From IMG/VR virus record IMGVR_UViG_3300037804_000399, positions 26,832-90,831 of that record: 64,000 nucleotides of DNA; one strand, written 5' to 3'. The translations under genes were made by a program, and so were the position numbers. Below the pieces are notes generated by a model. That model saw only the letters and a list, made by a program, of their open reading frames with translations, was not told where the DNA came from and searched no databases. The DNA is from a virus. Below are positions 5,431 to 33,762 of this stretch, one piece after another (the first letter of the stretch is position 1; each line of letters starts with the position of its first letter).

Positions 5431-5432
5431 TA

Positions 5433-13936: not shown

Positions 13937-16405
13937 ATGAGTACTGACATTTCCATCTCAAACAAAAATGAATATTTGCGGTTCTCTGCAAGTTCTATAA
14001 AAGAGCTCCTTCAACAAAAACTTTCAGAAGGAACTAATTTTACTGACCAAGCATTTGCTGGATCTGTTATTGATATAATGTTAGACTCTTTATCACAGAT
14101 GTACGCAGCTCAAATGTTCTATCTTAATAACTCTGCAGCTGAAAGTATCTTTACTGATTCTTCATTGTATGAAAACATGAACCGTATCGTAAAAATGCTT
14201 GCGTATAACCCAAGAGGTTACATAACATCATCATTACCAGTAAGACTTACAACTACAGATAAGTATTCTGATGATGCTAGAAACGTTTTACATAGATACA
14301 CAACTGTTACAACAAATTTAAAAACATCAAGTTTTAAAACTGAACCAATTACCTATTCTTGTGCATTTGATCTTGATAGAGGATTTAGTTTCAGTACTGA
14401 ATCTCCAAATGAATTAGTATTGTATAACGGAAGCTGGAATCTTTATCCGCAAAAGACAGTATCTCTAGGAGTTCCTTTCGAGACTGTAATCCTTAACAAG
14501 TTAGATATAAGTGAAGATTCTCAAAAAAGAGATTTTATTTCACATGATCATATTGATGTATTTGTTCAGACATCCCCTACTAGCTTAACTTACGAAAAAT
14601 ATTCTACAGTTAACACTTTATTTGAAAGTGGATCACAAGATCTACATGTAGAAGTTAGATTAAATGAAAACAAAAATTACCAACTTAGGTTTGGTGATGG
14701 TGTTAAGGGAAGACGTATTCCTAAGAACTGTGACATTAGAGTAATTTATCTCAAATCAAACGGTGCAGAAGGAGTTGTTGGACCAGAAGCTTTCCCAACA
14801 GCAGAACCTCTAACCTTAAAATGGGGCGTGACCGGACTTACTATTTCTGAATTAAGAAATATGTTAGACGTGTCTGATAGAGACTATAATTTAATCAACA
14901 GTGCAACTCATTTAGGAGCTACAAGTATTGTTACAGATACCTCTGCGACAGAATCTTCTGAATTTGAAACAGTTGCTGACATCAGAACTAATGCTCCAAA
15001 CTGGTTCCGTATGGGAAGTCGTTTAATCACTTATACTGATTTTGAACAATTTATTAAAGGAACGTTCTCACAGGTTCGTGATGTAACAGTTCATAATAAC
15101 TGGGACTTCTTAATCGAATTTGAAGAGTGGCTTAGAACATATGATAAACTATCAATGGCAATACGTCAAAGCTTTTATAAGTTCGCAGATGCTGCTGATG
15201 CAAATAACATTTACATTTGGATTAAGAACTTAACAAATATTGATAACAAACGCGCAATTGAAGAAGCTTGTAATAGAATTAAAAGTCTTACAGCTGAGTT
15301 AATCGTTCTTGATCCTGTTCACACTTTCTATTCTCCTTTAATCACAAAACATAATTTAGATTATGTTACTTCTGATACATTCTATGATGAACTTGAAGCT
15401 GACGATCAAAACATTTTTGATCAAGACCAATCTGATAAGATTGATCAAGTGGAAGATCGTTTCGGATACATCTTTATCGATAAAGATGAACAGATAACAG
15501 AAATCGTTGATGATGTAGAAATAACTAGAAGTAGAACCCAAGCAGAGATGGCAGCACTGACAGATTTTATTCCTATAAGATCTTTAGATACGTACGCTCC
15601 TATCCAAACAGGAAACGAAGCAAGTGATAATGCTGCTAACTTAAATATTCGTAGAGATATAAAAATGTTTATATTCTCAAACTATGAACCAAAACGTGAC
15701 AAGTTAATTGCCGGAAACGATTCTTGGGAACGTGATTTGAAGACAAGAATATTAAACGGTCAGGCTGATATCGAAAGCGAAGTTATTGAAATTTCAGAAC
15801 AAGTTTACACATACGGAGTTTACTTTCCAACCTCAACGGTTTGGGAACATTCACAACAAGTAAATATTGCAAAGATTGAAGTACTAAGAAATATGTTTGT
15901 AACTTTTGATCAAGTTGACGCAGCGCTCAAGCAACAGTACGCTGATCGTGTAAATAATTACAGAAATGGATTATATATGGATGCTGTGAATAGTTCGTAC
16001 CTTGAAATTACAAGAAACAAACATTCACTTATTACTACAGAGCGAATTAGAAAACAAGTTGGAGATATTTTAATCAACTATTTTCGGGTCGTAAATTCCA
16101 ATCTAGGAATGAAAATTGATATTGATCAGATACACACTAACATTCTTGCTATAGATGGTGTAAATAAGGTTCGTACGATAACGTTGGAACAAGGCGATCA
16201 AGGAAAAATTAGAAAGAATGAATTTGACGGAATTTCCTTCGGAGCATGGACAGACGAATTAGTCGACAAGAGAGATAAACGAAACGTATCAGCAAATGAA
16301 AAGATAAAAGATTTTCAGTTTCCTGTTTTATATTTCGCAACTCAGATAGATAATATCATTAGAGTAGAACAAGACGACTACCTTGTAACAGGTGTTGAAT
16401 ACTAA
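13937..16405 (+). CDS. 6: Baseplate wedge subunit (T4 gp6-like)
   Basis: FTDQAFAGS...LAYNP, LRFGDGV.G, YL.SNG..G, ETVADIRTNAP...RLIT..DF. Confidence 0.85.
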   Translation: MSTDISISNKNEYLRFSASSIKELLQQKLSEGTNFTDQAFAGSVIDIMLDSLSQMYAAQMFYLNNSAAESIFTDSSLYENMNRIVKMLAYNPRGYITSSLPVRLTTTDKYSDDARNVLHRYTTVTTNLKTSSFKTEPITYSCAFDLDRGFSFSTESPNELVLYNGSWNLYPQKTVSLGVPFETVILNKLDISEDSQKRDFISHDHIDVFVQTSPTSLTYEKYSTVNTLFESGSQDLHVEVRLNENKNYQLRFGDGVKGRRIPKNCDIRVIYLKSNGAEGVVGPEAFPTAEPLTLKWGVTGLTISELRNMLDVSDRDYNLINSATHLGATSIVTDTSATESSEFETVADIRTNAPNWFRMGSRLITYTDFEQFIKGTFSQVRDVTVHNNWDFLIEFEEWLRTYDKLSMAIRQSFYKFADAADANNIYIWIKNLTNIDNKRAIEEACNRIKSLTAELIVLDPVHTFYSPLITKHNLDYVTSDTFYDELEADDQNIFDQDQSDKIDQVEDRFGYIFIDKDEQITEIVDDVEITRSRTQAEMAALTDFIPIRSLDTYAPIQTGNEASDNAANLNIRRDIKMFIFSNYEPKRDKLIAGNDSWERDLKTRILNGQADIESEVIEISEQVYTYGVYFPTSTVWEHSQQVNIAKIEVLRNMFVTFDQVDAALKQQYADRVNNYRNGLYMDAVNSSYLEITRNKHSLITTERIRKQVGDILINYFRVVNSNLGMKIDIDQIHTNILAIDGVNKVRTITLEQGDQGKIRKNEFDGISFGAWTDELVDKRDKRNVSANEKIKDFQFPVLYFATQIDNIIRVEQDDYLVTGVEY

Positions 16406-16416: not shown

Positions 16417-19400
16417 ATGGTTGACAAGAAAGGTTCGGACTTCAATCAAGGCGAATTGTTAAAGAAGTATATTAACAACCCTGAATGGATCCGAACATAT
16501 GAAACGTTGTGGAATACTCTCGAAACATCTACTCAATTAGTAGGGGCTGAAATACATGAGAAAACTAGAAATTATGTACAGAACCTACGTGACATAGACC
16601 TTTGTGAAACAAAAGCTCTAAGATCAATAGTTACAGAACTTCAAGTCGACAATATGGAAATTGTTGACGCTCTTCCTAAAGAGATTCAACGACTAGTCGA
16701 TATCTTTTCAATTAACCCTTCCCTTCTTTTAACAGATGGAATGGTTTTTGAAGATTACATGGAAACGTTTGAAGCAGAAGTTCAAGCCATATATGCAAAA
16801 TACTTTCCCACTCAGTTCTTCCTTCGTCAATTTGAATTTGATGACGCAGAAGTAAAGTGGAACAACCAACCTATAGAAGAATTCGTAGATAGATACGCTT
16901 GTAAGGTTGTTAATATAATTAACAAATACAAAGAAGAATCTGAATCTGATATTGATGAACTTGATATTACAAATGAAATGTTATTTGATTCTTCCGAACC
17001 TAGATTCTATGATTCAAGTGATGTTGATTTTGTAGGAACGCTTGAAGGCGTAATCCAAAATACAATAGCTGATAGACTTTACGATCAATTTAGCACTGAT
17101 ATCGAAACAGGAATTTACCGTCAAAGCATTTCAGAAGATGGAGACAATCCAGTATTTGGAGATGTATTCGGATTTACTTGGATTGTGGACGATGAGAACT
17201 TCATGAAAGTTCAAATCAAAGCAAATATTGAAACAATTTTCAAAGCATTTAACGATAGTGTTATTCTTGGAGAATCATACTACGTACCTTTCCAAGTGTT
17301 TACTGTAACTCAACTTTCAATTACTAGTGGGTTAATACTTCCAGAGCACGTCTCTAAGACGTATACTCGCTCGAAGGTGATACTGAACGGGGTAGCAACA
17401 TTTATCGATGATGAAGACATCTCAGAATGGATGGCATTGATTGTTAGAAGATTTGAAGACTCTTCATTCTTTATTGATGACGCAGAATCTAAAATAGAAT
17501 CTTTAGAATATGTTCAGTTCCGTCAAAAGTTTCCACCTACAGTTACAGAATATATCAATCTTGTTGATCCAGCTGCTACTGAAATAGATGAAAGTTTCGT
17601 TTGGGACATTATTGGTCTTGATCCACTTAACGAAGAACGTGATGTTTTGTATCATGAATGTTATGCTGGAAAGACAATGCTCGATTTGTTTATCATTGCT
17701 CAGTTCACTGATACTCTTTACAAGCACTGGTTAGAAGAATCTTACCAGTCATTGGTTGAAAACATTTTAGATCAAAACTTTGAATTTGGCACAGATGCTG
17801 ATTACAAATACAGAGGCGTTTACCAAATAATTGGTGATGATGCCAAAACAGAATTAGATGCACTTGCACCTTCACAATTTGAAAAAGACCATTACCTAAT
17901 TACATTAACTAATGAAGTTGAACAGTTCTTTGTATATAACGGTTTAGAGTGGCTGGAACAATGTCCGTTCAGAGATCTGGATCGAATCACAGAAGCTGCT
18001 GCTGAAAGCCTTCTTGACACCTGTAAACGTATTAGACTACAACGTAACAATTTAAAAGAGATTGCTCAACGCCATGCTATTATTGGTACCAACAGAGCTG
18101 TTGAAAGTGTTTTCACAGATTATGTATTAAGATCATTTACTCAATTAGAAGATTGGGAAATGACAACTGTCACTGATGATCGTAATTGGAGATTAGTTGG
18201 TGCAATAACTTTACAAGATTATGAACAAACTGCTGCTGGGTTATATGTAGATGATGATATAAAAATTGGAACATATAAAAGAGTTTTGGTTGCAAACCAA
18301 TATACTGATTATGTTGTATTCAGAAGTAAACAAACTTCAACATTAGTTGCAACTGAAATTGGATTATCAGACGAATTCGAATTTAATACTGATTCTGTTT
18401 ATAACTTGAATGACATTCTTCCTTCACTTGGAACATTAGATTCAAAAGTAAAAGTTATTGAATATTGGGATACAACAGAGTATTTTAATATTGAACCAAC
18501 CGAGACTAAGTATCTTACTGGACCGATCAATAAACGTATCAGTATGAAAGATGTTGTTAATATTACAGATGATGGTGATCTTGAGATTGCTGAAACTGGC
18601 GAACTAGTAGAATTCATAGAAGGTCAATCAAAATATCAAATCTTTAATCAGTATCTTGATAAAGGAAATCCTCAATACTGGAATGATAACAAGGAAACAA
18701 ATTACTCTACAAGTCGTGAAAACAGCATAAACTTTTCAGATGAAGAAGTTTCCGAAAGAAAGAGATTCATGGGATCTTACAGTCCAATCGATCTTGTATT
18801 CAGTGCTGGTCTGTCAAGAATTGAAACTCCTGGCCCGTTGAGAAGTTCAGATATCCAAGCTGGTGATTACTACGATGTAAACTTTACTGTACCTGATTTT
18901 GCAAACACTGCATATACAGCAGCTCAATTAGCAGCTGTTGATGCAAATGCAACAAACGGTCTTGATGCAATGGATTTAATCCAACAAGAAGCTTATTACA
19001 CTAATCTTTATTCATCTCTCGATGATCAAGAGATTTTTGACGATGGTGCTCAATGGATTTTATCTTACAAGAGAGGCGATGCAGAAAAAGCTGAAGGTTT
19101 AACTTTTGATGATGCTAAAGACTGGGATCCTGAAAACGTTTTACATCAAACATATATTTTAAAAAGAGCTAGAACCAAAGCAATACGTTTTTGGGGACAA
19201 GGCGCTGACATAAACTTCATGTCATTTAAATTTGATAATTGGTTCAAGATTTCATTAGAAGAATGGTTGATCAACAATCAAGACAAACACATGACTCAAT
19301 TCTGGAATGATGTTGGTATGAAGGGTGACTGGGAAGCTGACATACGTCCTATCCTTGATCAATACTGGAACATGCATGCTTCATCAGGATATTTAGATAC

Positions 19401-22400
19401 TGAACTTTATGATATCCATAAGAAATACATTGGTGTTTCAAAATCAAGATTGTTAGAAGGTGCTATTACAAAAGATCCTAGTACTGGAACATGGGACTTT
19501 GAAAATTTTGTTAGAGAAGTTGCTCACGAAGGATCACACCCTGCAGCAAACTATAAAAACTCACTTTACCCAACTATTCAACACCAACCATTCCTTTGGA
19601 ACTTGGTAGAAAAACTTGCGGTTGTTTTCCCTTCAGTATTGTTTACTGTATTAGTAGGAGAAGGTGAAGAAGTTTTAAACCGTTTAAGTCAAATAGATGA
19701 ATTTGGTAACTTGATTGACAGTTGGAAACATACTCACCAAGAGTTTATGTCATACCAAACTAGATATGAAGCTTCTACTAATACAGGAATTGCTTCAATA
19801 AGCGATCCGCAGATTGATAGAGATGGTCCATTTAATCCAGATGCGTTAAAAGAATTAATTAAATCAAATGCTGAACCTCTTTCAGATAAGAGTTCGTTCG
19901 GAAATGATTTTGTTGAAATCTTTAGAAATGATTATTACGGATACGCATCTGTGTTCTCAGATTTTTATTTCCTACAAGCTGAAAAAGCAAAGATTCAATT
20001 TCACTTGGATCGCATTGACGGTGTAAAAGAATTTGATATTGTTGGAATACCAACAGGAGATGAAGATTTATTTGGATTGAGAAATCAAAAGATCTTTCAA
20101 TTTGCTGCTGATCAAAATGAATATCACTATACCCTTTACAAAGATGTAAACATCAAAGATTGCCCTGGACAGCTTTGGGTTCGTTATAATAATTTCCCAT
20201 TCTCATTTCCAGTTGCTGTCGACCAAACAGATCTTATCACATATGATGATACATTAGTAAGTATTAATCAATTAGAAACTAGAGATGTTTCACTCGTAAA
20301 CGTTATGAATAACTGTTACGATTTTGGAATACAGCAAAACATTATTTGGGCACTTGGAGATAATCACGGCGAACTAACATGGACGGTTTTAAATGTTGGA
20401 TTTACTCTTAATGATGAAGTAAGAACATCTCTTTATACAATCATTAATAACGCAACACCTTATGTATTTTTAGAGAATGAACATTATGTTGGTACTCACT
20501 TTAATGGTGATACTATTATTCTTGTAATTTATAATGAAGAAACAAATAAATTTACAAATAAATATATTGATCTTATCGAATTAGTTTACTTACCTGACAG
20601 AACATATTCTGTAGGTGATGATATGAGATTCTTTAAAGATTCTGATGAAGCGCTTATCCAAGGACATGCTCTTTCAAATACTACAGTAAGAATTTGTCGT
20701 CCAGTTGATCTACCAACCACTCTTCCAGCTACAACTACTACTGAAGGACCAATTATTGTTGTTCCTCCTGCGACTACTCTTGGACCGACTACATTAGCAC
20801 CTCCTACCACATTAGCACCAACAACTACAGTGGGACCAACAACTACAGTGGGACCAACAACTACAACAACTATTTGTCCATCATTAAAAGAAGATCTATT
20901 TGTAAGATGGCAGTATCAATCTTCATATGTTCACGAACAACCTACTCCGAGAGATATAATTGTAAAGGTATATCGTGACCCACTAAGTACATTTACTGGA
21001 GCATTTTCAGTAGCTTATAATACATTAGATGAAGGTGATCCAGGTTCGCAGTGGCCAAGAACTCAATTTCCAGATACAGGCCCTTCAGCTGAGAAAATAA
21101 AAGATTACATACCTAAAGCAGATTTCATTTATTTTGCAGAAGGTCAAATGGAAGCGGAAGTAAAAATTACTATTCTTCCAAGTGCTCAACCAGAAAATGC
21201 AGAATATTTCTATATTAGAATGACTGATTTCTTATTCAACGATTGTTGTGAAGTTAATTCAAATGTGGTTGAACAGAATCCGCATATGATTTTAATAACA
21301 GATAGATGTTGCCCTTGTCCTGAAACTACTTCTACTACAAGTACATCTACTTCAACATCTACTTCAACAAGTACTTCAACAAGTACTTCAACATCTACAA
21401 GTACTTCAACATCTACTTCAACAAGTACAAGTACTTCAACAAGTACTTCAACAAGTACTTCAACAAGTACTTCAACAAGTACTTCAACAAGTACTTCAAC
21501 ATCTACAAGTACTTCAACAAGTACTTCTACATCTACAAGTACATCTACTTCTACATCTACAAGTACATCTACTTCTACTTCAACAAGTACATCTACTTCT
21601 ACATCTACTTCTACATCTACAAGTACATCTACATCTACTTCAACAAGTACATCTACTTCTACATCTACTTCTACATCTACAAGTACATCTACATCTACTT
21701 CAACAAGTACATCTACATCTACTTCTACTTCAACAAGTACATCTACTTCTACTTCAACAAGTACATCTACAAGTACATCTACTTCAACAAGTACTTCTAC
21801 ATCAACAAGTACATCTACTTCAACAAGTACCACAACACTAGCACCTACGACAAGTACCACAACAAGTACCTCTACTTCTACTACAAGTACATCAACATCT
21901 ACTTCAACAAGTACATCAACAAGTACAAGTACTTCAACAAGTACATCTACTTCAACATCTACTTCAACAAGTACTTCAACAAGTACATCTACTTCAACAT
22001 CTACTTCAACATCTACTTCAACAAGTACAAGTACTTCAACAAGTACCACAACACTAGCACCTACGACAAGTACAACTAGTACATCTACAACTAGTACATC
22101 TTCAACAAGTACATCTACTACGTTGCCACCAGTATTAAGTTGGAAGTATGTTCCATGTCCGACTACAACAAGTACTTCGACAAGTACTTCAACATCTACA
22201 AGTACAACTACACTTGCACCTACAACAAGTACTTCGACTTCGACTTCAACAAGTACTTCAACAAGTACTTCAACAAGTACTTCAACAAGTACTTCGACAA
22301 GTACAAGTACTTCAACATCTACAACTACACTTGCACCTACAACAAGTACTTCGACTTCAACAAGTACTTCGACAACTACATTAGCTCCTACAACTAGTAC

Positions 22401-23094
22401 GACTACGACTACAACGACTGGTGTACCTACAACAACAACTACTCCGGCTCCAATATTAAGCTATGAGTATGAAGAATGTTTTCCAGTTACAACAACTACT
22501 GCGGCTCCAACAACGACTCCGACTCCAACCACTAGTACAACATCTGCGCCGATGGGAGCAGTTGGAACTCCGAACGGTGATCCGACTATGTTGATAACTC
22601 TAAACTGGACTCCAGGTGACGCTACTAAAAACTATCTAGGAGAAAGCTGGACTCCTGGAGAGACAAAAATAGCTTATTCTTCTGATCCATATAGAAAAGG
22701 AGTTTACACTGGCGGAGCAACTATCGAATCAGAATTCTGGGGAATTAATGCAGCTGGTGTGAACAACGATAAATTTGTATTAGCAGCATTCATTTCTGCT
22801 GCAGCGGGATATAGACATTATGATAAAGTTCACTATGCTGCTGAAAATGCAAAGATTACAATAGGATCAAATTACACTTTTAATTCTGCACAAGCAAGTT
22901 CAAAAATATTATCCTTTACTCCTGAAGGAAATGCTTTTCCATTTGGAGGTCCGTGGGGTACAGCAATAAATACTGTCAGTAGTGGAATATTAGTAAATAT
23001 TGGCCAAGGATATATTCAACCTCTTCAGTTTTCTGGAATGGTTGCTCTAACAAACGGATTAACAATTTCATGGTCACAAGGAACTGGGTGGTAA
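16417..23094 (+). CDS. Giant baseplate protein (gp7-like N-terminal part) fused to Calx-beta, a mucin-like Ser/Thr stalk and a variable tip domain
   Basis: Follows gp6; HAIIGTNRAVE (KGT-like motif); Calx-beta-like SVAYNT...DY......FAEGQ....ITI...E.AE.F; long (TS)n tract. Confidence 0.65.
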   Translation: MVDKKGSDFNQGELLKKYINNPEWIRTYETLWNTLETSTQLVGAEIHEKTRNYVQNLRDIDLCETKALRSIVTELQVDNMEIVDALPKEIQRLVDIFSINPSLLLTDGMVFEDYMETFEAEVQAIYAKYFPTQFFLRQFEFDDAEVKWNNQPIEEFVDRYACKVVNIINKYKEESESDIDELDITNEMLFDSSEPRFYDSSDVDFVGTLEGVIQNTIADRLYDQFSTDIETGIYRQSISEDGDNPVFGDVFGFTWIVDDENFMKVQIKANIETIFKAFNDSVILGESYYVPFQVFTVTQLSITSGLILPEHVSKTYTRSKVILNGVATFIDDEDISEWMALIVRRFEDSSFFIDDAESKIESLEYVQFRQKFPPTVTEYINLVDPAATEIDESFVWDIIGLDPLNEERDVLYHECYAGKTMLDLFIIAQFTDTLYKHWLEESYQSLVENILDQNFEFGTDADYKYRGVYQIIGDDAKTELDALAPSQFEKDHYLITLTNEVEQFFVYNGLEWLEQCPFRDLDRITEAAAESLLDTCKRIRLQRNNLKEIAQRHAIIGTNRAVESVFTDYVLRSFTQLEDWEMTTVTDDRNWRLVGAITLQDYEQTAAGLYVDDDIKIGTYKRVLVANQYTDYVVFRSKQTSTLVATEIGLSDEFEFNTDSVYNLNDILPSLGTLDSKVKVIEYWDTTEYFNIEPTETKYLTGPINKRISMKDVVNITDDGDLEIAETGELVEFIEGQSKYQIFNQYLDKGNPQYWNDNKETNYSTSRENSINFSDEEVSERKRFMGSYSPIDLVFSAGLSRIETPGPLRSSDIQAGDYYDVNFTVPDFANTAYTAAQLAAVDANATNGLDAMDLIQQEAYYTNLYSSLDDQEIFDDGAQWILSYKRGDAEKAEGLTFDDAKDWDPENVLHQTYILKRARTKAIRFWGQGADINFMSFKFDNWFKISLEEWLINNQDKHMTQFWNDVGMKGDWEADIRPILDQYWNMHASSGYLDTELYDIHKKYIGVSKSRLLEGAITKDPSTGTWDFENFVREVAHEGSHPAANYKNSLYPTIQHQPFLWNLVEKLAVVFPSVLFTVLVGEGEEVLNRLSQIDEFGNLIDSWKHTHQEFMSYQTRYEASTNTGIASISDPQIDRDGPFNPDALKELIKSNAEPLSDKSSFGNDFVEIFRNDYYGYASVFSDFYFLQAEKAKIQFHLDRIDGVKEFDIVGIPTGDEDLFGLRNQKIFQFAADQNEYHYTLYKDVNIKDCPGQLWVRYNNFPFSFPVAVDQTDLITYDDTLVSINQLETRDVSLVNVMNNCYDFGIQQNIIWALGDNHGELTWTVLNVGFTLNDEVRTSLYTIINNATPYVFLENEHYVGTHFNGDTIILVIYNEETNKFTNKYIDLIELVYLPDRTYSVGDDMRFFKDSDEALIQGHALSNTTVRICRPVDLPTTLPATTTTEGPIIVVPPATTLGPTTLAPPTTLAPTTTVGPTTTVGPTTTTTICPSLKEDLFVRWQYQSSYVHEQPTPRDIIVKVYRDPLSTFTGAFSVAYNTLDEGDPGSQWPRTQFPDTGPSAEKIKDYIPKADFIYFAEGQMEAEVKITILPSAQPENAEYFYIRMTDFLFNDCCEVNSNVVEQNPHMILITDRCCPCPETTSTTSTSTSTSTSTSTSTSTSTSTSTSTSTSTSTSTSTSTSTSTSTSTSTSTSTSTSTSTSTSTSTSTSTSTSTSTSTSTSTSTSTSTSTSTSTSTSTSTSTSTSTSTSTSTSTSTSTSTSTSTSTSTSTSTSTSTSTSTSTSTSTSTSTSTSTSTSTSTSTSTSTSTTTLAPTTSTTTSTSTSTTSTSTSTSTSTSTSTSTSTSTSTSTSTSTSTSTSTSTSTSTSTSTSTSTSTSTSTTTLAPTTSTTSTSTTSTSSTSTSTTLPPVLSWKYVPCPTTTSTSTSTSTSTSTTTLAPTTSTSTSTSTSTSTSTSTSTSTSTSTSTSTSTSTTTLAPTTSTSTSTSTSTTTLAPTTSTTTTTTTGVPTTTTTPAPILSYEYEECFPVTTTTAAPTTTPTPTTSTTSAPMGAVGTPNGDPTMLITLNWTPGDATKNYLGESWTPGETKIAYSSDPYRKGVYTGGATIESEFWGINAAGVNNDKFVLAAFISAAAGYRHYDKVHYAAENAKITIGSNYTFNSAQASSKILSFTPEGNAFPFGGPWGTAINTVSSGILVNIGQGYIQPLQFSGMVALTNGLTISWSQGTGW
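21325..22440 (+). repeat. Low-complexity coding repeat for (Thr-Ser)n with TTTLAP spacers
   Basis: Mosaic of ACA/ACT with AGT/TCA/TCT codons; about 500 nt of nearly uninterrupted TS dipeptide to ~21830. Confidence 0.95.
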
Positions 23095-23095
23095 A

Positions 23096-24019
23096 ATGGC
23101 AGATTTATATTTAGATGCAGATTACGGAAACTTTATAAGACATTTAGGAATATGCTACATGTTAGAAGATCCTGACTTTGTAACCCCTCCGGACTTTGCA
23201 GGTCCACCAGACGAGGTTGGATTTACTGATTGTGATGATTGTGAATCAACTCCTATTACAACAACCACTCTCGGACCTACAACAAGTACTACACCAGCAC
23301 CATTGTCAATTGTAGGACCAGTTAACGGCGATGGAACAATGCTAATTAAATTAGAATGGACGTCAACTGCAGTTGCAAGTGTTTCTATAGCCAGTCCTTC
23401 TCAAATTACTACATCTGCTGTTCACAATTACGAAACAGGAGATTCGATTACTATTAGTGGAACAGATACTACGCCGTCAATAAACGGAACACATATAGTA
23501 ACAAAAATAGATGCTAACAACTTTACTATTCCAGTCAATGTTACTGCAGTAGTTTCTGGTGTAGGAGCAACTGAATTTGCAACTGTTCCATTTGTAGGAG
23601 GTAGTTGGACAAACGGCGAAACTAAAAAAGTTTATTCACAGGCAGGTGGGTATGTATATGAAACTAGTTATTATCCTTCAATTACCTCATACTCTGGATC
23701 AGCTGAAAGATGGGTAAGAGTGGTAAGCGGAGACACATTTAGAGTAGGAGGATTCGAAAAGCAATTAGGAACTTTCGCGGGTAAAATCAGTGACGGAAAT
23801 TTAATAGTCAAAGGATTGCATGGAGCAAATTTGTATATGGATAACTATACTAATGGATCATATGGATTTGCTGGCACTCCTACAAGTGATAATATAGCAA
23901 GTAAAGCACTGGCTGCTGCTGGTATCGTGAGAGGATTCCCATGTGGAGCTCCTCAAAAATCATCTTCATTCGTTACTACGCATGATATAACTATAACATG
24001 GTCTCCACAAGGATGGTAA
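23096..24019 (+). CDS. Putative appendage/adhesin protein (Cys N-module + variable tip domain)
   Basis: MADLYLDADYG...ICY...GPPD..F.DCDDC; ...SWTNGETK...ITWSPQGW. Confidence 0.55.
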   Translation: MADLYLDADYGNFIRHLGICYMLEDPDFVTPPDFAGPPDEVGFTDCDDCESTPITTTTLGPTTSTTPAPLSIVGPVNGDGTMLIKLEWTSTAVASVSIASPSQITTSAVHNYETGDSITISGTDTTPSINGTHIVTKIDANNFTIPVNVTAVVSGVGATEFATVPFVGGSWTNGETKKVYSQAGGYVYETSYYPSITSYSGSAERWVRVVSGDTFRVGGFEKQLGTFAGKISDGNLIVKGLHGANLYMDNYTNGSYGFAGTPTSDNIASKALAAAGIVRGFPCGAPQKSSSFVTTHDITITWSPQGW

Positions 24020-24020
24020 T

Positions 24021-24554
24021 ATGGCAGATTTAAAATTAGATGCGGATTACGGAAATGTTGTAAGACATAATGCAATCTGTTATATACTTGATAGAGTAGA
24101 GGCTGGCGTTGCTGACTTTGCAGGTCCACCAGAAGGAATTAATTTTGATGATTGTGACGAATGTCACAATGCACCATTTCCACCTATGTCACTTGTGACA
24201 TTAGAGCAAACAGGCGTTCTCGTTGAAGGCGACCCACTTGGTCAGCTAGTAGGTAATTTTGTTATAACTGGAGGAAAGTTTCCGTTTACCATTGCACTCA
24301 TAGTCGGAGTTGATGATGATGACAATGCACATTATCAGATTAACGGCAATGATCTCGAATTAAGTAACACTGGAGGAACCGTAACACCTTCAAGTTCTAT
24401 TAGAGTGGAAGTAACAGATGCTCTAGGTAATAAATTAGAATCAGTTATAACTGTAATTGTTGCTCCTATCTTAGGTACAAAAACTATTACATTAACACCA
24501 GGTGATAACTTATTTGATTATGATTTTAATGAACCAGTAGGAACATTAAACTAA
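24021..24554 (+). CDS. Putative appendage protein (Cys N-module + cadherin-like domain)
   Basis: MADLKLDADYG...ICY...CDEC; ALIVGVDDDDNAHYQINGNDL cadherin-like repeat. Confidence 0.55.
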   Translation: MADLKLDADYGNVVRHNAICYILDRVEAGVADFAGPPEGINFDDCDECHNAPFPPMSLVTLEQTGVLVEGDPLGQLVGNFVITGGKFPFTIALIVGVDDDDNAHYQINGNDLELSNTGGTVTPSSSIRVEVTDALGNKLESVITVIVAPILGTKTITLTPGDNLFDYDFNEPVGTLN

Positions 24555-24583
24555 TGAATACAATTAATAAAGGAATGGTATAA

Positions 24584-25564
24584 ATGGCTGATGTATATAG
24601 TATAGCACCAGATCCTCAAGGTTTAGGTAGAGATGTTGATAATTTAAAATTTAGCATAGAGATTCCAAATACATTAAATGTATCTGTAGCGGGACCTTAT
24701 CCAGCCGGCACTTATAAGGTTACGGTAAAAGTAGTTGATGATGTTACTATGGAATTTGGGTATGGATTTTTCAATGTAGTTATATATGCTTCCATTACAG
24801 ATTTTATACTTAATCAAACAAATACTCCTAACGAAGGAGATCCAATCAGTACCTTAATAGGTGACTTACAAGTTACTGGAGGAACCGCCCCTTTTGTTTT
24901 TGCACTAATAGCTGGATTTGGAGACGGAGACAATCCCCATTATCAAATAAATCTTGCGGATTTAGAACTAAGTGGTACTGGTGGATCTACAGAACCTACA
25001 GATTCAATTTACGCAAGAGTGACTGATGCAAATGGTGACGAAGCATTTGACAACTTTATTATAAACTTAGATGCTCCTGGTGCTCCATTAGCAACAATAG
25101 GAACTCCAAATGCTGACCCTACATTGTTTATTAAAGTAGAATCTGCAAATGCTGGAGGTACTGCATTATTTCCTTATAATTTCCTAGATGAAGATTTTAC
25201 TGACGGTGAAACAAAAGAAGTATATGGAACTTATGTTAATGTAGCTCTATTAAAATCTTGGACTATTGGAGCTGGTGATGATAGCGTCACAATAGCTGAT
25301 GATAAAGTAGTATCACCAGCATCATATACTGTTATAACTGCAAACTCCGCTAGTGAGAATCTTCGCCGAGGAAAAGACAACGGTGATTTTGTTTGGGGTG
25401 GATATTTTGCTCCAGATGCTAGTGTAAATGTAGTTAGTACTACCATCGTAGCTGCCACTCCTAATGATGTATTAGATGCTAGCAATTATGGCGAAGTTGT
25501 ATTTGACATTTCGGGTGGCGGGAATCATGTTAAAATAACAATAAGCGAAGGAAATGGTTGGTAA
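24584..25564 (+). CDS. Putative appendage protein (cadherin-like + variable tip domain)
   Basis: FALIAGFGDGDNPHYQIN; GTPNADPT...FTDGETK...ISEGNGW. Confidence 0.55.
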   Translation: MADVYSIAPDPQGLGRDVDNLKFSIEIPNTLNVSVAGPYPAGTYKVTVKVVDDVTMEFGYGFFNVVIYASITDFILNQTNTPNEGDPISTLIGDLQVTGGTAPFVFALIAGFGDGDNPHYQINLADLELSGTGGSTEPTDSIYARVTDANGDEAFDNFIINLDAPGAPLATIGTPNADPTLFIKVESANAGGTALFPYNFLDEDFTDGETKEVYGTYVNVALLKSWTIGAGDDSVTIADDKVVSPASYTVITANSASENLRRGKDNGDFVWGGYFAPDASVNVVSTTIVAATPNDVLDASNYGEVVFDISGGGNHVKITISEGNGW

Positions 25565-25579
25565 TCTGCCTTTGTGATG

Positions 25580-25607
25580 TAACAAACATTCCTCAATACT
25601 AGAATAT
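25580..25607 (+). promoter_or_regulatory. Class-2 promoter for sulfotransferase 1
   Basis: TAACAA-N16-GAATAT, matching the motif before the polymerase, gp55, gp47 and groEL genes. Confidence 0.5.
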
Positions 25608-25639
25608 AATTAAATTGTAAATGTATTGAGGAATAAAAA

Positions 25640-26770
25640 ATGATTATAGTAAGTGGATGCCCTAGATCTGGAACTAGTTTAACTATGGATATTCTTCGTA
25701 AGGCGACTGGCGAAGAGAACATGATTGCTTCAAAATTTCCACAGAAAAGAGAGTTAGAAATCACAAGAGGGGAGGACGAATCAGATAGTGATTTCCAAAT
25801 ACGAAATTATTTGTTTCAAAAATTCAAACGTCCAGATAGAGATGATGATTATACTGACATGAATCCAAACGGATTTTGGGAATGTAAATTTTCTGTATTA
25901 GGAGTCGGAGCTGAATACGGGTCAAGACTATTCAATTATCACTCTGCAAAGTTTACCGAAACACTATTAGACACTGGTAAAGATAAAATTTGTAAAATCG
26001 TAAGTCAAGGTTTAATGTCATCCGATGTAAGATATATTGATAAAGTAATTTATTTAATAAGACATCCTAGAAACGTTGCAAAATCTCATGAAAGATTAAA
26101 GAGAGGGTTTGATGTTAAAGTAAATGGCAAGAAGCAAAATATATTTGAAGGATTGACCATACACACTCCTGAGATGTATATAGGAGTTACCATTCAAGCT
26201 TGTAGATGGATTTTAGAAAATCCAACCGTGCCAATATTATTTGTTAACTTTGATGATTTGTTATCTAACCCAACTGAAACAATTGACACTATTGCAGAGT
26301 TTGTCGAGTTCGGAGATTTTGAAAAATCTAAAACTATTGTAGATCCAGTGTTGAATAGAAGTAAAATTCAAGACATCGAACATGTGCTTTGGGAAGATGC
26401 TGAATTTGTTTATGAACAGTTTAATAAACAAAACTATCAGGAAATATTAGATTACTTCGAAGATCCTACAAGAGCATATAGAAAATACACAGATAAATTT
26501 ATTTGCACTAGAACAAATGATGAAGTAACCAATCGTGATTGTCAGAGTTGTTTATCGAGTGACGTAGTCAAATACAATAAAAAAGTATTAGCCAATCACA
26601 AACAGATTGATTATTTAAAAGAACCTTGTATGTATGAATGCGGAAAGAATGTTGATACTGATTCATATAAAACCATTGAAGAAAGTATTAAAAACCATAC
26701 TTGGGATAATGGAAAGAAAATAATAGACGGAAAACTGGATGTTATTCCTAGTGGAAATACTTTAGGATAA
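25640..26770 (+). CDS. PAPS-dependent sulfotransferase with C-terminal Cys domain
   Basis: 5'-PSB loop SGCPRSGTS; NPNGFWE; 3'-PB YLIRHPRNVAKS; FDDLLSNP. Confidence 0.85.
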   Translation: MIIVSGCPRSGTSLTMDILRKATGEENMIASKFPQKRELEITRGEDESDSDFQIRNYLFQKFKRPDRDDDYTDMNPNGFWECKFSVLGVGAEYGSRLFNYHSAKFTETLLDTGKDKICKIVSQGLMSSDVRYIDKVIYLIRHPRNVAKSHERLKRGFDVKVNGKKQNIFEGLTIHTPEMYIGVTIQACRWILENPTVPILFVNFDDLLSNPTETIDTIAEFVEFGDFEKSKTIVDPVLNRSKIQDIEHVLWEDAEFVYEQFNKQNYQEILDYFEDPTRAYRKYTDKFICTRTNDEVTNRDCQSCLSSDVVKYNKKVLANHKQIDYLKEPCMYECGKNVDTDSYKTIEESIKNHTWDNGKKIIDGKLDVIPSGNTLG

Positions 26771-26885
26771 TATTTTTAGGATATGGTTAATATATTCAAA
26801 GAATAATAAGTAAATAAGGATACTGTAACAATATTTTTGGAATACTTATGACTCGAGAATATATTAACCACATGGACAAATTATA

Positions 26886-29800
26886 ATGGCAAATATTTAT
26901 TTAGATACTGATACTCACGGAGAGTATATAAAACATAATGATATTTGTTACAAGCGTGTAGGTCCGAGTACCACTGAGCCAGCAACTGTATTTGGAGCTC
27001 CTGATGAGACTGGATTTGCAGATTGTGACGATTGTGAGTTTGATCCCCCTGTATTCTTCGGAGAGTTTGATTATGAAACTGAAGAAGAAGGAAGTCTCAC
27101 TGCATTTACTGCTACCGCTACCGATACTGACACATATGAAATAATAGAACAACGAGATGAAGCCTTTTTTAACATAAATCCTGTAACTGGAGAAATAGTA
27201 TGGAAAACCGCTCCCGATTTTGATGACGCTAGAGATGAAAATTACGACAACAATTATGTTCTTAGAATACGAGCAACTGGACCAGGTGGACAAACTTTTC
27301 AATTTTATTCTGTTACAGTAACCAATATTTCAGAATTACCTGAATTTTATGGACCATCTACAAGGGAAAGATTTGATGGTTATGATGAAGGAATGACAAT
27401 TACAGCACACGATACAACTTCTTTTTCTATGATAGGCGGAGAAGACATTTCCAAATTTTCGTTAGATCCCACAACGGGCGTTTTAACATTTCTAGCAATA
27501 CCTGATTTTGCTTCCCCTGGTGATTTTGATGCAGATAATGAATATCATGTAACTGTAAGAGCAACGGGACCTGGTGGGTTTGCTGACAGAAACTTTACGA
27601 TATTTATAAGTGAATTTCCAACGGCTAGATGTACTGAATACGGAGCTGATGATATATTAGGAAATTTACCAACTAACACACATCCAACGATAGACTATAA
27701 AATAGAAGGAATGAATTTAGCTGGTGATAAATGGGTTGCTCAATTTGCGAGACTGATGTGTGATAGTAATGGAGTACAGGCTGGAAGATGGTATTCAGTA
27801 AAAGCAAATAGAGGTGCAAGCGGGACCCTAGTTTTCGACACTAACTATATAGAAACAAACTTACGACACCGCTGGACTACAGTAGCTGTTTCTAGTTTAG
27901 GATTTGGAGACGAAGACGTTGGACAATTTTACTTCGATATAGACAAAGATTCTGCAACCATTTTTATGGTGGTAAATTATGGTCTAATTAGACAAGGAAT
28001 ACGTTTCTCTTCTACTTGGAGATCTAATGATTACAAGGATGTCTTTAATCTAGATGGAAATTGGCAACACAGTTTTGATTCTTTAGGAACAAGCGCAACA
28101 TTAATTTCATCAACATGGGATAACTACAATTCTGGAGTGTCTGCTTTAGGAGTACAAGCACCGACAGGAGATTGGACGAATACTGCAACACCAACTTACA
28201 TTGAAGATCAAAAGATAACAGATGCTATGTTCGGAGAAATTGTATTTGACATAGGCTCATCGGGATTTGCCAGTCCGATAAGAGTAAAACTTTCAACTAG
28301 ACGTGGTACAGGAATAAATCCTGATTGGAATGATGTTCCAGCTCCTGTTGCTCCTGAAATAATTGGACCAACAAAATACGTAGTAAATGATGGAGTAATG
28401 CCAGCATTTCAAGTGAATGTAAAGGATAGAACATTTGAACCCACTTATACAATATCCGGTGGAGCCGATGCTGCTCTATTTACTGTTGACGCTAGAGGAT
28501 TTGTAAATTTTAAAGTAGCTACTAATTATTCAGCACCTACTGATGCTGGCGCAAATAACAAATATGATCTTCAAATTACAGCTACAAATGATCAAGGAGC
28601 TGATTCAGAAACTTATGAAATCACTGTTATAGGAGTATCTGGTGTAGTTGGTCCGATACAAACTCTTAATTTTTCTGGTTCGGGAACAACTGATCCAACT
28701 AGTTTAGACAATACAGTATTTGTAAAGTATGTTGGTGGTGGTGGAGAAGGTGTTTCTGCTTTTAATAAAACGTGGAACTCGGGTCAGTTAGGACATGTAT
28801 TTGTTGATTATACAGATGCTAGTCCAAATGGAGAATCCATTGCTATTTCAATTGGTGACTCTGTATTGAACATTTCTGATTTAAGTGATACTGCAATAAT
28901 AGAATTTACAGTACGTGCTGGGTTGACTTTGGACTTAGAAAAGATTTTAGCTCCTTTAGCTGATAATGATACTTCAGTGGGAGTTGAATCTCACACTTTA
29001 GATTTTACATATAATGATTCTATTTCAGATCAGTTTGGTAGAGTTACATTTACAAACGGAGAAGTGTGGGAATTTTTAAGAGGAAGTAATTGGCCTGCTC
29101 CGACAGCGCCAGTATTCACAGGAGCCACAGCTCATAGTCTTACAACAGGATATTCCAATCCGTTCACTGCCACTGCAAATCCAAATACTTATGATCTAAA
29201 TTTTGCAATAACAGGTGGAGCAGATGCAGCTGTGTTTAATATCACATATGACGGCACAGTTACTTTTATAGTTCCTCCTGATTTTTCAGCACCAATAGAT
29301 GCGGGTGCAAATAATGTTTATGATTTGGAAATCACTGCTACTAATGAAACAGGATCCACTGTACAAGCCTTTACTGTGACTGTGAATGATTTTACATTAC
29401 CAGTTTTTAATGGTCCTTTTGCATTGAACGTAGATGAAGAACAAACAGATATTTTGACAGTTGATGTTCAATTTAATGATTATCCTCCTACTTTTTCAAT
29501 AGTTAGTGGAGTGGATGAAGCTCTATTTGCGGTTGATAATATAACTGGTGTGGTTACATTTATAGCAGCTCCTGACTTTTTAACTCCGTTAGATGTTGGT
29601 GCTAATAATGTTTATGATTTTGAAGTTACAGCAACTAATCCTGCAGGTGATCAGACTCAAGCTTATGTTATAACAGTTGATCAATTACCATTGCCTGTTT
29701 TTACAGGAACGTTTATTCTTGAAATATCGGAAGGGTCAGCAGCTTTTACAGCAGTAGCTACTAACACTCCAACGTTTGCTATAACTGGAGGATTGGATCA

Positions 29801-30323
29801 ATCCTTATTTGATATTGTACCAGCTACTGGAGTTGTAACATTCTCACCAGCAGTATTATTTGCTTCACCTACTGACAATGGTGCTAACAATGTATATGAT
29901 GTTGAAATAACAGCAACTAATTTAGGCGGTTCAGTTGCTCAAGCATACGCGATAACTATTAGAGATCCAGCTTTAGTTCAAGAGATAGGAATAGAAATCG
30001 CAGGAGATCCACATGCTGAGATTACTTGGTCTTGGTCTGACGCTGCTGCAACAAAAGATTGGTTAGGTGAGACTTGGTCCAACGGAGAAACTAAACTAGT
30101 ACATGATGAATTTGCAGGAGCAAATGCTTCAGGATTTTACAGAGGTAATTATTCAGTAGGAAGCATTTATGTTGGCGGCTCGGTAAATGCAACATCTGGA
30201 AATATATTTGCTTATGGATCATCAATTGGATTTATGTCTGGTTATGGTAATTTAAATACAGGAGTTGTGTTAGTATCTGGTACAAATACAATGACATTAT
30301 TGATGAAAGCATCATTAACTTAA
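26886..30323 (+). CDS. Large adhesin-like fibre: Cys N-module, six cadherin-like repeats, three variable tip-type domains
   Basis: Repeats of GG.DA..F.I...TG.V.F...PDF..P.D.GANN.YD..ITATN; N-terminal ICY...CDDC. Confidence 0.7.
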   Translation: MANIYLDTDTHGEYIKHNDICYKRVGPSTTEPATVFGAPDETGFADCDDCEFDPPVFFGEFDYETEEEGSLTAFTATATDTDTYEIIEQRDEAFFNINPVTGEIVWKTAPDFDDARDENYDNNYVLRIRATGPGGQTFQFYSVTVTNISELPEFYGPSTRERFDGYDEGMTITAHDTTSFSMIGGEDISKFSLDPTTGVLTFLAIPDFASPGDFDADNEYHVTVRATGPGGFADRNFTIFISEFPTARCTEYGADDILGNLPTNTHPTIDYKIEGMNLAGDKWVAQFARLMCDSNGVQAGRWYSVKANRGASGTLVFDTNYIETNLRHRWTTVAVSSLGFGDEDVGQFYFDIDKDSATIFMVVNYGLIRQGIRFSSTWRSNDYKDVFNLDGNWQHSFDSLGTSATLISSTWDNYNSGVSALGVQAPTGDWTNTATPTYIEDQKITDAMFGEIVFDIGSSGFASPIRVKLSTRRGTGINPDWNDVPAPVAPEIIGPTKYVVNDGVMPAFQVNVKDRTFEPTYTISGGADAALFTVDARGFVNFKVATNYSAPTDAGANNKYDLQITATNDQGADSETYEITVIGVSGVVGPIQTLNFSGSGTTDPTSLDNTVFVKYVGGGGEGVSAFNKTWNSGQLGHVFVDYTDASPNGESIAISIGDSVLNISDLSDTAIIEFTVRAGLTLDLEKILAPLADNDTSVGVESHTLDFTYNDSISDQFGRVTFTNGEVWEFLRGSNWPAPTAPVFTGATAHSLTTGYSNPFTATANPNTYDLNFAITGGADAAVFNITYDGTVTFIVPPDFSAPIDAGANNVYDLEITATNETGSTVQAFTVTVNDFTLPVFNGPFALNVDEEQTDILTVDVQFNDYPPTFSIVSGVDEALFAVDNITGVVTFIAAPDFLTPLDVGANNVYDFEVTATNPAGDQTQAYVITVDQLPLPVFTGTFILEISEGSAAFTAVATNTPTFAITGGLDQSLFDIVPATGVVTFSPAVLFASPTDNGANNVYDVEITATNLGGSVAQAYAITIRDPALVQEIGIEIAGDPHAEITWSWSDAAATKDWLGETWSNGETKLVHDEFAGANASGFYRGNYSVGSIYVGGSVNATSGNIFAYGSSIGFMSGYGNLNTGVVLVSGTNTMTLLMKASLT

Positions 30324-30335: not shown

Positions 30336-31226
30336 ATGATTGTAGTAACAGGAACTCCTCGTAGTGGAACTTCATTAGCAATGTTATCATTGGCAAAGTT
30401 AATTGGCAAAGATAAAATAGTAGGAGATAAGTTCCCTCAGAAAAAGAAAGCTCAAAATGCTGCCGAACGATATGTATATGAATTGAAGAATAATAATAAC
30501 TTGAACCCTACAGGGTTTTGGGAAAATTTAAAGTATATATCCAATGGATTTTCATATTCATCAGAAAATGAAAAAGAGTTTTATAAACTATCGACATCCT
30601 CTGATCATGCTGTTAAAATAATTGCTACTGGGTTACCAAAAACAGAACCAAAGTATATTGACAAGTTAGTCATCTGTTTGAGAGATCCTCTTGAAACTGC
30701 AACATCACAAACCGGACTTGTTGGACAAATTGGTCCAAGTGAAGCTGACCCTAAAAAACAAATCTTTGATTTAATAACGATTGCAAAATATATGATAGTA
30801 AATCCAAAGGTTGATTACTTTCTGCTGAATTATTCAGATCATAAGATAAATGCAAAATACACTATGGAACAATTAAGTGCATTTGTAGAAGTACCTTATA
30901 AGGAAAGCATTTACAAGGCCACTGGAAAGAAAACAATGAAGCGTCCCGATACAAAAATTTGGGACGAAGCATTTTACATTTACAATTTAATGATACAGGA
31001 AAATTTTCAAGCAGTGTGTGATTATTCCAATGATGTTACAACTGAGCTATCAAGACAAACAAAATCTTGGTTTTGTCCAAAGTTTGATTTTTTAACTAAT
31101 GATGATCGATGTAATACGTGTAGAAGCAATAGCAAGGTAAGAGAAAACTTTATTAAAAAAGCAAATCACAATAAACATGATCATGAAAACGAACCATGTT
31201 ACTTGGATCTATTAGAACAGGAGTAG
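30336..31226 (+). CDS. Second PAPS-dependent sulfotransferase (paralogue of 25640)
   Basis: TGTPRSGTS; NPTGFWE; ICLRDPLETATS; same C-terminal Cys spacing. Confidence 0.85.
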   Translation: MIVVTGTPRSGTSLAMLSLAKLIGKDKIVGDKFPQKKKAQNAAERYVYELKNNNNLNPTGFWENLKYISNGFSYSSENEKEFYKLSTSSDHAVKIIATGLPKTEPKYIDKLVICLRDPLETATSQTGLVGQIGPSEADPKKQIFDLITIAKYMIVNPKVDYFLLNYSDHKINAKYTMEQLSAFVEVPYKESIYKATGKKTMKRPDTKIWDEAFYIYNLMIQENFQAVCDYSNDVTTELSRQTKSWFCPKFDFLTNDDRCNTCRSNSKVRENFIKKANHNKHDHENEPCYLDLLEQE

Positions 31227-31956: not shown

Positions 31957-33762
31957 ATGGCAAAGTTCAGCGACTTTAATACAGATATAGTTTGTCCTCC
32001 CGATGTGGAAGACTCTCAATTTGACGATCAACCAGAATTATATGATGCCGGTGTTTGGAAACGATTCAAATTTGACATGACTGCGGTCGATGAAAAATTT
32101 GTAATTGCTTTTGAGGCTGAAAATATCGCAAAGTCTGGACTAGACGAATCAGAAAACGGATTGGAGTTTCAAAACAATTACGATTTCCCATCTATTGAAC
32201 CTGATACAGGAGCTGTTGCAGAAGGAAGAGTATTGGATGATTCTGAACGATATGAAAATGCGGTAGGTATTATTCAAATTGATCAATCTACTTTAACATT
32301 TAACAAACATAATCATAAAGTAAAAGTTAGATTAGATGATACTGAAACTGATGATCAGGAAACAACATCTGTAATTTTACAAGAACATGTTGGTAAATAT
32401 CTTCCAGCTTATGAAATAGATGAATCAAACATTGACATTTATTATCTTGATCGTATTAGAAGTACGGTAGACTTTGAAAGTTTAAATGTAGATCCTACAA
32501 ATGCTCGTTTTAGAATTAATAAAGTAGTTTCAGGTGATAATAATTCACATGAAGTATTTTTAGATATCATAGAAAATGATGATGTTAAATACACATCAAT
32601 GTTTTTAGTAAACGTTCCAGAGCATTATGTAAATCGTTCTTTAATTGACTTGAAATTAATTGACAAGTCTTATGTTGAAGAAACTGACAGAGAAGCTATA
32701 TTATGTAATGGACCTGAAGTTAAAAATTATATCGGCGCTGTTCAATATGAAACGTTTAGTTTTGTATTAGGTGGACGAGAAGCGAAATATAAAAAACAAT
32801 CTTTACAAGCACGAGACACAAGACAAATAGTTGAAAACCAATTTAACCCAAGTGTGTTTCATCCTGAATACTTACTAGATGCAGATAAAGAAGGTTGGAA
32901 TGTTGATAATGATGGAGTAGTTTATTATCACCCATCAGCTAGAGATGAATCATTTATCATTGATGAGTATTCTCCTCTTGTTCCGTTCACTGATGTATAT
33001 GATGAGACAGGAGTTATCAACGGAAGGAACTATCTTCCTGGAGTTGTTCCTACGAATGCACTTTATGAATGTCAGAAGGTTGCTGAAGGAATCATTCCTG
33101 ATAATATTATAGATGATGTTGTAACAGGAGAATATCCTCAACGTTGTGACATACCTTGGAATTATCTTACCGAACAGAATTTAACTTTGGATAGTTTCAA
33201 AAGCGAATACCAATTTTTTGATACCGATACATTAATCGGTGAACAGCATCCAATATATGTTAACAAGAGTAATCAACTTAACGTACTTTATCCTGAAGTC
33301 ATGTCAGCTCAATCATTCAGACTTAAAAATATGTATGATCCAAATTGGCAAACTTATATCACACAAAATGACGAATGTATGGAAAGAACGCTAGATGGAT
33401 TGAGAAAATACTGGAGTATAGGTAAAGATTCAAATGACATTTGGTTATCCTACTCGTATAGAGATGTAGATAATGTAAATAACTTCGATCAGTTTGAGTT
33501 AATTGAAAGAATTGAAGGTTTTTATAAGCTGTCTGGATGTCCGTTACATAAGAGTAATGTATATTCACTCTTGATTGAAAATAGTGGATTAAATGAACGA
33601 TTAGAAAAAGGTGAGCATAATGCTGACTCAAATAGTCCAACATTCAATAAAGCTATAAAAATCAAAGTACAAGAACTTGTTGAACAAAATATAAGAAAAC
33701 TTATAGATAAAGTAGCACCAGTTCACACTCAGCTTTGGCGAATAATTTGGAAAGGCGAATAA
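31957..33762 (+). CDS. Baseplate protein, putative C-terminal part of the gp7-like wedge subunit
   Basis: Ends IRKLIDKVAPVHTQLWRIIW (P.HT motif typical of gp7/P2 gpI-type C-termini); acidic composition like the N-terminal part of 16417. Confidence 0.5.
   Translation: MAKFSDFNTDIVCPPDVEDSQFDDQPELYDAGVWKRFKFDMTAVDEKFVIAFEAENIAKSGLDESENGLEFQNNYDFPSIEPDTGAVAEGRVLDDSERYENAVGIIQIDQSTLTFNKHNHKVKVRLDDTETDDQETTSVILQEHVGKYLPAYEIDESNIDIYYLDRIRSTVDFESLNVDPTNARFRINKVVSGDNNSHEVFLDIIENDDVKYTSMFLVNVPEHYVNRSLIDLKLIDKSYVEETDREAILCNGPEVKNYIGAVQYETFSFVLGGREAKYKKQSLQARDTRQIVENQFNPSVFHPEYLLDADKEGWNVDNDGVVYYHPSARDESFIIDEYSPLVPFTDVYDETGVINGRNYLPGVVPTNALYECQKVAEGIIPDNIIDDVVTGEYPQRCDIPWNYLTEQNLTLDSFKSEYQFFDTDTLIGEQHPIYVNKSNQLNVLYPEVMSAQSFRLKNMYDPNWQTYITQNDECMERTLDGLRKYWSIGKDSNDIWLSYSYRDVDNVNNFDQFELIERIEGFYKLSGCPLHKSNVYSLLIENSGLNERLEKGEHNADSNSPTFNKAIKIKVQELVEQNIRKLIDKVAPVHTQLWRIIWKGE

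Follow-up and report, generated by a model that had tools for sequence, protein, structure and literature searches.

A probable docking system for phage adhesins in which short stalk peptides would complete a truncated four-cysteine domain

How might a tailed phage carry several different adhesins on a single stalk? The host range of tailed phages depends on how receptor-binding proteins are mounted on the baseplate, and the branched complexes known so far use large folded adaptor domains for this. We analysed a stretch of 64,000 nucleotides, called here the window, that covers positions 26,832 to 90,831 of the IMG/VR virus record IMGVR_UViG_3300037804_000399. It contains a gene for a long stalk protein, in which a Thr/Ser-rich tract is interrupted by two short peptides (islands 1 and 2), and, after it, a group of adhesin genes, three of which open with the same Cys-rich module, the N-module (Table 1). 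An initial annotation had proposed that island and module together make up one domain with four Cys, and such a domain, of the form aromatic-x-x-C, then CY, then C-x-x-C, is supported by contiguous units in other proteins, by the position at which the N-modules start, by a split at a gene junction in another phage and by structure prediction with AlphaFold2. On this evidence, docking of the adhesins on the stalk islands through completion of a split domain is probably a new docking system.

Table 1. Features of the stalk and adhesin region, in window coordinates. Strand 0 and Cys0 denote the first strand of the proposed complete domain and the Cys in which it ends. aa, amino acids; ORF, open reading frame.
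Feature	Position	Strand	Description
gp6-like baseplate wedge gene	13937-16405		directly 5' of the stalk gene
Stalk gene	16417..23094	+	ORF of 2225 aa; baseplate part (~residues 1-1380), Pro/Thr linker, Calx-beta-like domain, Thr/Ser tract with two islands, C-terminal tip domain
Thr/Ser-rich mucin-like spacer	21325..22449	+	punctuated by short Thr-Leu-Ala-Pro blocks
Island 1	22129..22161	+	11 aa, one Cys, motif WKYVPC, aromatic, beta-strand-like; proposed strand 0 and Cys0
Island 2	22450..22485	+	12 aa, one Cys, motif YEYEEC then FP; proposed strand 0 and Cys0
Stalk C-terminal tip domain	22552..23091	+	~180 residues, GETK motif, ends in GW; common to adhesins in alignments
N-module 1	23096..23254	+	3 Cys; in 307-aa adhesin 23096-24019
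N-module 2	24021..24176	+	in 177-aa protein 24021-24554, which has no tip domain
326-aa protein	24584..25564	+	cadherin-like repeat and tip domain, no N-module
N-module 3	26886..27047	+	in 1145-aa cadherin-repeat adhesin 26886-30323

The shared start of about 50 amino acids with three Cys, read by the initial annotation in the genes at 23096, 24021 and 26886, is confirmed by alignment. The three N-modules align over 53-54 residues with 51-56% identity to the first copy, and M1, L6, D7, D9, G11, H16, I19, C20, Y21, G36, P38, F43, D45, C46, D47, C49 and P53 are invariant. Each fits the pattern of the family, a GxCY hairpin with CxxC (or CxC, or Cx4C) 12-45 residues further on, and these are the only copies in the whole 90.8-kb record. 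When 1.84 billion proteins were searched with a profile built from them, 10 more genuine representatives emerged, and all matches start at residue 1-10. In an alignment of 18 N-terminal members, which includes those from fetched loci, Cys20, Cys46 and Cys49 are each kept in 16, so that the odd number of Cys is a feature of the family; Tyr21 is kept in all 18 and Gly11 in 17. Downstream of the module come Ser- or Thr-rich linkers and then laminin-G/concanavalin-like (lectin-like), cadherin-like or tip domains, as expected if the module is an anchor. Pfam, PHROGs and the PDB gave no match to the N-module, which by these searches appears to belong to a rare, unnamed family without a Pfam or PDB entry. 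The 307-aa adhesin has an identical copy on a 257-kb contig. The 177-aa protein is followed by TAA TGA and a 29-nucleotide gap with a ribosome-binding site before the 326-aa protein begins; the latter is probably its functional partner, and the pair looks like a maintained two-gene adhesin that may act together.

The islands of the stalk, described in the initial annotation as two isolated one-Cys peptides embedded in Thr/Ser repeats, are found in the translation exactly where it had placed them. The repeats span about 370 residues of the stalk and form a spacer that we term mucin-like and sugar-free. In the DNA they are an imperfect repeat with mixed synonymous codons (Tandem Repeats Finder matches of 65-75%) and not a pure microsatellite; the mixed codons indicate a tract kept at the protein level, neither a simple slippage array nor an assembly artefact. 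To score the islands we derived a position matrix from twelve internal units, all taken from two other sequences, the phage locus L006 and the planctomycete protein P0022, which are described below, with the window sequences left out. Islands 1 and 2 rank 4th and 11th of 19,548 positions in the long plus-strand ORFs of the window, and 3rd and 7th among the 229 positions centred on a Cys. The matrix also places the tail of an adhesin from another phage locus, L004, first of 12,605 positions; the motif of island 2 ends this adhesin, which lies upstream in its cluster, and recurs in L006. A broad island pattern run through six frames of 326 kb of fetched phage DNA returned only the nine islands of three adhesin clusters and one obvious chance match, and a narrower pattern, drawn up after the sites had been seen, has an expectation of about 0.02 per 116 kb. 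Two candidate sites were rejected: a possible third island at ~21290, where the Calx-beta-like domain ends in a Cys-rich stretch, which scores poorly at rank 34 of the 229 Cys-centred positions, and a DNA pattern match in a WOR-3 genome (L022), a chance hit inside an unrelated ATPase-type protein.

If island and module are parts of one domain, proteins should exist that carry both in one chain. The initial annotation had named contiguous homologues of this kind as a test, and they were searched for and found in L006 and P0022. There are 12 complete internal units, seven in L006 (ORFs 5497, 7283 and 9035) and five in P0022, and each has an aromatic strand with an additional Cys that precedes the Cys of the hairpin by 17-33 residues, then the GxCY hairpin and then CxxC. 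The complete units carry four recurrent Cys and the N-modules three. Aligned with hhalign, the seven internal units of L006 match the N-module profile around the hairpin with a probability of 88% and an E-value of 3e-6. Neither Pfam nor PHROGs has a named family for the complete unit. Several collection scans for additional loci gave nothing new, and a homologue search with ORF 5497 of L006 returned matches dominated by poly-Ser words.

L006 comes from a 160.7-kb record, G002, that is 84% complete, and in it free islands, N-modules and complete units stand side by side. A 558-aa protein of this locus has six free islands in poly-Ser linkers, four ending in YSEC and two in YEECC, and the same chain holds complete units after the free islands. 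The genes at 7283 and 9035 begin with N-modules and continue into further complete units, and another gene with an N-module starts at 2078, which makes three N-module genes beside six islands. P0022 is a 670-aa protein of Poriferisphaera corsica with five tandem complete units after a signal that resembles those of the twin-arginine translocation (Tat) pathway, and the first strands of its units (motif WDIY-x-x-C) closely resemble island 1. It is a bacterial chromosomal protein and the sole cellular member found; its twin-arginine signal lies about 150 residues from the annotated start. A scan of genome contigs for P0022 gave no match, nor did a PDB sequence search.

Where, then, was the domain cut? 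In a joint alignment the N-modules begin five or six residues after the Cys0 position of the complete units, directly past the island segment. The window N-modules have no strand 0 or Cys0 of their own, their Met start following directly on the position of that element, and strand 0 with Cys0 occurs separately in the window, as the two stalk islands. This suggests that the window N-module is a truncated copy of a previously unnamed small domain with four Cys, lacking strand 0 and Cys0. The same cut is found at the junction of two genes in L004, a locus of a 45-kb record with terminal repeats (G001) whose tail module is siphovirus-like, with a tape measure, two tail proteins and then the adhesins. 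The sole island of G001 is formed by the last ten residues of adhesin 1. Between the TAA after this island and the ATG of adhesin 2, which is in frame with it, lies a single codon; adhesin 2 has a diverged N-module and is the only N-module gene there. The cut point coincides with the N-module start in the joint alignment. Islands and N-modules thus co-occur in three phage records, and the contiguous homologues together with the conserved split boundary support, at the level of sequence, the inference of a split domain.

These loci also bear on two explanations that leave the N-module aside. The islands could act within the stalk, their Cys strands pairing with each other or with Cys clusters beside the Calx-beta-like domain, and so loop the spacer or set its length in oxidising sea water after release. 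Two islands with one Cys each do lie in the same chain, and Cys clusters at ~20870 and 21230-21320 flank the Calx-beta-like domain, but such pairing leaves unexplained the single C-terminal island of L004 beside an N-module gene, the six islands of L006 and the match of the islands to strand 0 of complete units, and we consider it very unlikely. The other explanation takes the islands as modification sites; two sulfotransferase-like enzymes might, for example, sulfate the tyrosines of island 2, which is acidic and rich in Tyr. The Tyr residues of island 2 have Glu flanks, and two sulfotransferase-like genes, 25640-26770 and 30336-31226, lie between the adhesin genes. However, a search of G001 and G002, the other island-bearing records, found no sulfotransferase homologue, the majority of the islands (island 1 and the four YSEC copies of L006) lack an acidic character, and the best-kept island residue is the Cys, all of which makes sulfation scarcely credible as the function of the islands. 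The product of 25640-26770 matches Pfam Sulfotransfer_1 (E 7e-8), and that of 30336-31226 is 32% identical to it.

To understand how an island might complete an N-module, we compared AlphaFold2 models of the N-module alone and of a complete unit. The N-module, modelled with the 18-row alignment, has a predicted local distance difference test score (pLDDT) of 81.8, with the hairpin at residues 13-22 and a short helix from Cys46, and its residues 1-12 are confidently placed without a strand partner. The complete unit at 7421-7624 of L006 has a pLDDT of 81 and a predicted template modelling score of 0.68. Its island-like segment is a beta-strand at residues 5-10 (pLDDT of the block 88) followed by a turn with Cys0, and this strand pairs with a long strand, 13-21, that is equivalent to the first residues of the N-module. 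The model, in which both parts are in cis, agrees with what strand complementation predicts. Structural searches gave little: Foldseek found no match of the N-module in the PDB, a BFVD search reached at best an E-value of 0.09, an ESM Atlas search returned low scores only, and a wide VIA search gave Z scores no higher than 2.3 with the N-module and 3.3 with the complete unit. The best structural match of the complete unit is 3j7y_1 (Z 3.3, root-mean-square deviation 3.5, 46 residues aligned), and zinc-ribbon proteins (bL33, the MCM N-domain and PriA) are among its tied weak matches, at Z 2.0-3.3. These weak matches fit a metal site of four Cys without establishing one. A self-contained His-Cys3 zinc site within the N-module was rejected as a general answer: His16 is kept in only 6 of the 18 aligned members and, judging by the hairpin register of the model, would face away from Cys20.

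The complete domain would then consist of strand 0 ending in Cys0, strand 1, the GxCY hairpin with Cys1, and a CxxC with Cys2 and Cys3 at the start of a short helix. Each stalk island would complete one N-module in trans, its strand pairing with the N-terminal strand that the module leaves exposed, while the island Cys would fill out a four-Cys cluster with the three Cys of the module. This cluster would most likely be a structural metal site of the zinc type, formed in the cytoplasm. Tailed-phage virions are assembled in the reducing cytoplasm, and the Tat route, by which the bacterial homologue P0022 appears to be exported, carries folded, cofactor-loaded proteins; both considerations would favour a metal. 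The sequences would accommodate a disulfide formed after lysis equally well. The stalk, long and flexible and with a tip domain at its own end, would in this way carry interchangeable adhesins, and the whole would be a receptor-binding organ that is branched and modular. We infer the binding in trans, the chemistry of the site (metal or disulfide) and the stoichiometry.

Several observations weigh against docking by domain completion. The island motif is short, and its homology to strand 0 comes from matrix ranking and context, with no E-value. The search for internal units demanded an upstream Cys and the proteins are rich in Cys, so that the presence of Cys0 in 12 of 12 units is partly by construction, and the hhalign match between internal units and N-modules spans only 16 columns. 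Some N-modules, those of L004, P0012 and P0013, are short of one or two Cys. No fold search gave a clear match (best Z 3.3) that would establish the proposed metal site. The numbers of islands and N-module genes are unequal, 2:3 in the window and 6:3 in G002, and in a further locus, L007, which is a fragment of 12.9 kb, no island accompanies the five N-module genes. The N-module is also predicted to fold alone, with a pLDDT of 82, and may therefore be autonomous. The initial annotation had regarded independent folding of the module as an outcome that would tell against its idea; the model leans towards such folding, and the contiguous homologues point the other way.

The last of these observations could also be read to mean that the N-module suffices as an anchor by itself and attaches at another site of the baseplate, for example to the stalk body or to a gp10-like hub, and that the islands are relics of decayed complete units, left in a low-complexity linker without a docking role. 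The predicted folding of the module, the disagreement in numbers and the five N-module genes of L007 with no nearby island all favour such an anchor, and in the branched complexes known so far the interchangeable receptor-binding proteins as a rule have conserved N-terminal anchors (PMC8825819, PMC11414711). However, N-terminal modules never have a strand 0 of their own, whereas the identified internal units do. Relics would also hardly be expected to last or to keep their Cys, yet two phages have the islands in near-identical multiple copies within fast-evolving Ser/Thr linkers, and in a third phage the island lies exactly at the gene junction. We therefore think an autonomous anchor with relic islands unlikely and prefer docking on the islands by domain completion.

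In L007 (Ga0307377_10005934), the five successive genes that start with an N-module occupy 5303-12557 and lie among non-structural genes (peptidase M16-like, NUDIX-like and phosphoesterase-like). In several of its lectin-like proteins a short strand-Cys-Glu/Gln motif, with poly-Ser after it, ends or interrupts the chain. Such motifs might be further island-like sockets, but their matrix scores are low.

The remainder of the stalk and its surroundings show how the adhesin region is joined to the baseplate genes. The metagenomic protein P0016 is, over its residues 5-802, collinear with residues 1-1380 of the stalk, for which the phage collection and a PDB sequence search gave no matches. These stalk residues are a candidate for a protein like T4 gp7, which the position after the gp6-like gene fits. 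A Pfam match of the stalk to Tail_P2_I is below threshold (E 0.024, 14.9 bits against a cutoff of 20.6). P0016 has 1499 aa, and its last 154 residues match the C-terminus of the ORF at 31957-33762 (E 2e-26), so that a baseplate protein that is one chain in relatives appears here to be split, between 16417-23094 and 31957-33762, by an 11-kb cassette containing the Calx-beta-like domain, the Thr/Ser stalk, the tip domain, the adhesins and the two sulfotransferase-like genes. The match to Calx-beta (PF03160) at ~20870-21320 reaches 15.1 bits, below the gathering cutoff of 27, and we call the domain Calx-beta-like as a resemblance only. Cys clusters bracket it, with one Cys at its start, then CC, and CC-x-C at its end.

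The tip domain, with its GETK motif and C-terminal GW, terminates the stalk and at least three adhesins (22552-23091, 23270-24016, 25061-25561 and 29949-30320), and an N-module protein from a metagenome contig unrelated to the window has it at its end as well (L007:7481-8056). Pfam and PHROG searches gave no match to it. The 90.8-kb record that contains the window has a completeness estimate of ~35%; the GC content is ~34%. Going by gene content, with a helicase, a family-B DNA polymerase, a topoisomerase II, an SbcCD-like nuclease, a GroEL-like chaperonin and the gp6-like baseplate wedge protein, the source is classed as a large, distant T4-like marine myovirus. The phage-encoded chaperonin lies at 53992-55620 and matches PHROG 5725 (E 2e-137).

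The modular attachment of several receptor-binding proteins is itself known. In the branched complexes of Ackermannviridae (TSP1-4 of CBA120) and Alcyoneusvirus (RaK2), it relies on an N-terminal anchor and gp10-like domains (PMC8825819, PMC11414711, PMC10253068). The window resembles these complexes in having adjacent receptor-binding genes with a shared N-terminal module and variable distal domains, and in having one baseplate-attached protein as the hub. Unlike in these complexes, the proposed socket is a linear peptide of about 10 residues in a Thr/Ser spacer and not a folded domain, and the plug is a truncated Cys mini-domain. Pfam and PHROGs detect no gp10-like or XD domain in any adhesin or in the stalk, which does not exclude remote structural similarity. 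The known complexes are made of trimeric spikes.

The proposed completion by a strand from another protein is reminiscent of the donor-strand complementation of chaperone-usher pili, in which Ig-like pilins lack the last strand. In both, an incomplete fold would be finished by a beta-strand from another polypeptide to give a stable non-covalent assembly. Here, however, the receiving domain is a Cys-rich one of about 65 residues that lacks its first strand, a Cys would also be donated, and there is neither chaperone nor usher. In layout, the system can also be compared with the cohesin-dockerin pairs of the cellulosome, where a scaffold with Thr/Ser/Pro-rich linkers has repeated docking sites and each cargo bears one small terminal docking module. 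Repeated sites, such linkers and one terminal module per cargo would have counterparts in the window, but the likeness goes no further than analogy: here short peptides would serve as docking sites, on a virion and not in an enzyme complex at the cell surface, and Pfam scans found no cohesin or dockerin family. Like the zinc-ribbon and treble-clef mini-domains with four Cys (bL33 and the MCM N-terminal domain), the complete unit is small, with Cys at hairpin turns and a CxxC at the start of a helix. Unlike in zinc ribbons, the first two ligand positions of the unit are lone Cys, each on a hairpin of its own, and not a CxxC knuckle, and the structural matches are weak. The window system is a member of none of these, with no gp10-like, XD, Ig-pilin, cohesin or dockerin domain detected. 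Our literature search found no report that joins strand complementation with phage tail fibres, and within the literature searched this docking principle is new for phages.

What would such a system mean for phages more widely? One possibility, which we put forward tentatively and think rather less probable than not, is that myovirus-like and siphovirus-like phages have a general and portable, cellulosome-like adhesin scaffold derived by gene fission, in which the Ser/Thr stalk of a baseplate protein, with 10-residue sockets, receives any protein with a three-Cys plug at its start through strand complementation and a shared four-Cys metal site. If so, a phage could swap its adhesin repertoire without altering the baseplate, and the presence of many lectin-like, cadherin-like and tip-domain adhesins on one stalk in uncultured marine phages would be explained. 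With a peptide of 10 residues and a module of 50, the connector would be the smallest of this kind known; it would have originated from a single mini-domain whose two parts came to be encoded by separate genes, cut at one and the same point in phages of unrelated type. The domain would represent a new protein family, absent from Pfam and the PDB, and its two parts could serve phage and protein engineers as a compact tag-and-catcher pair of natural origin.

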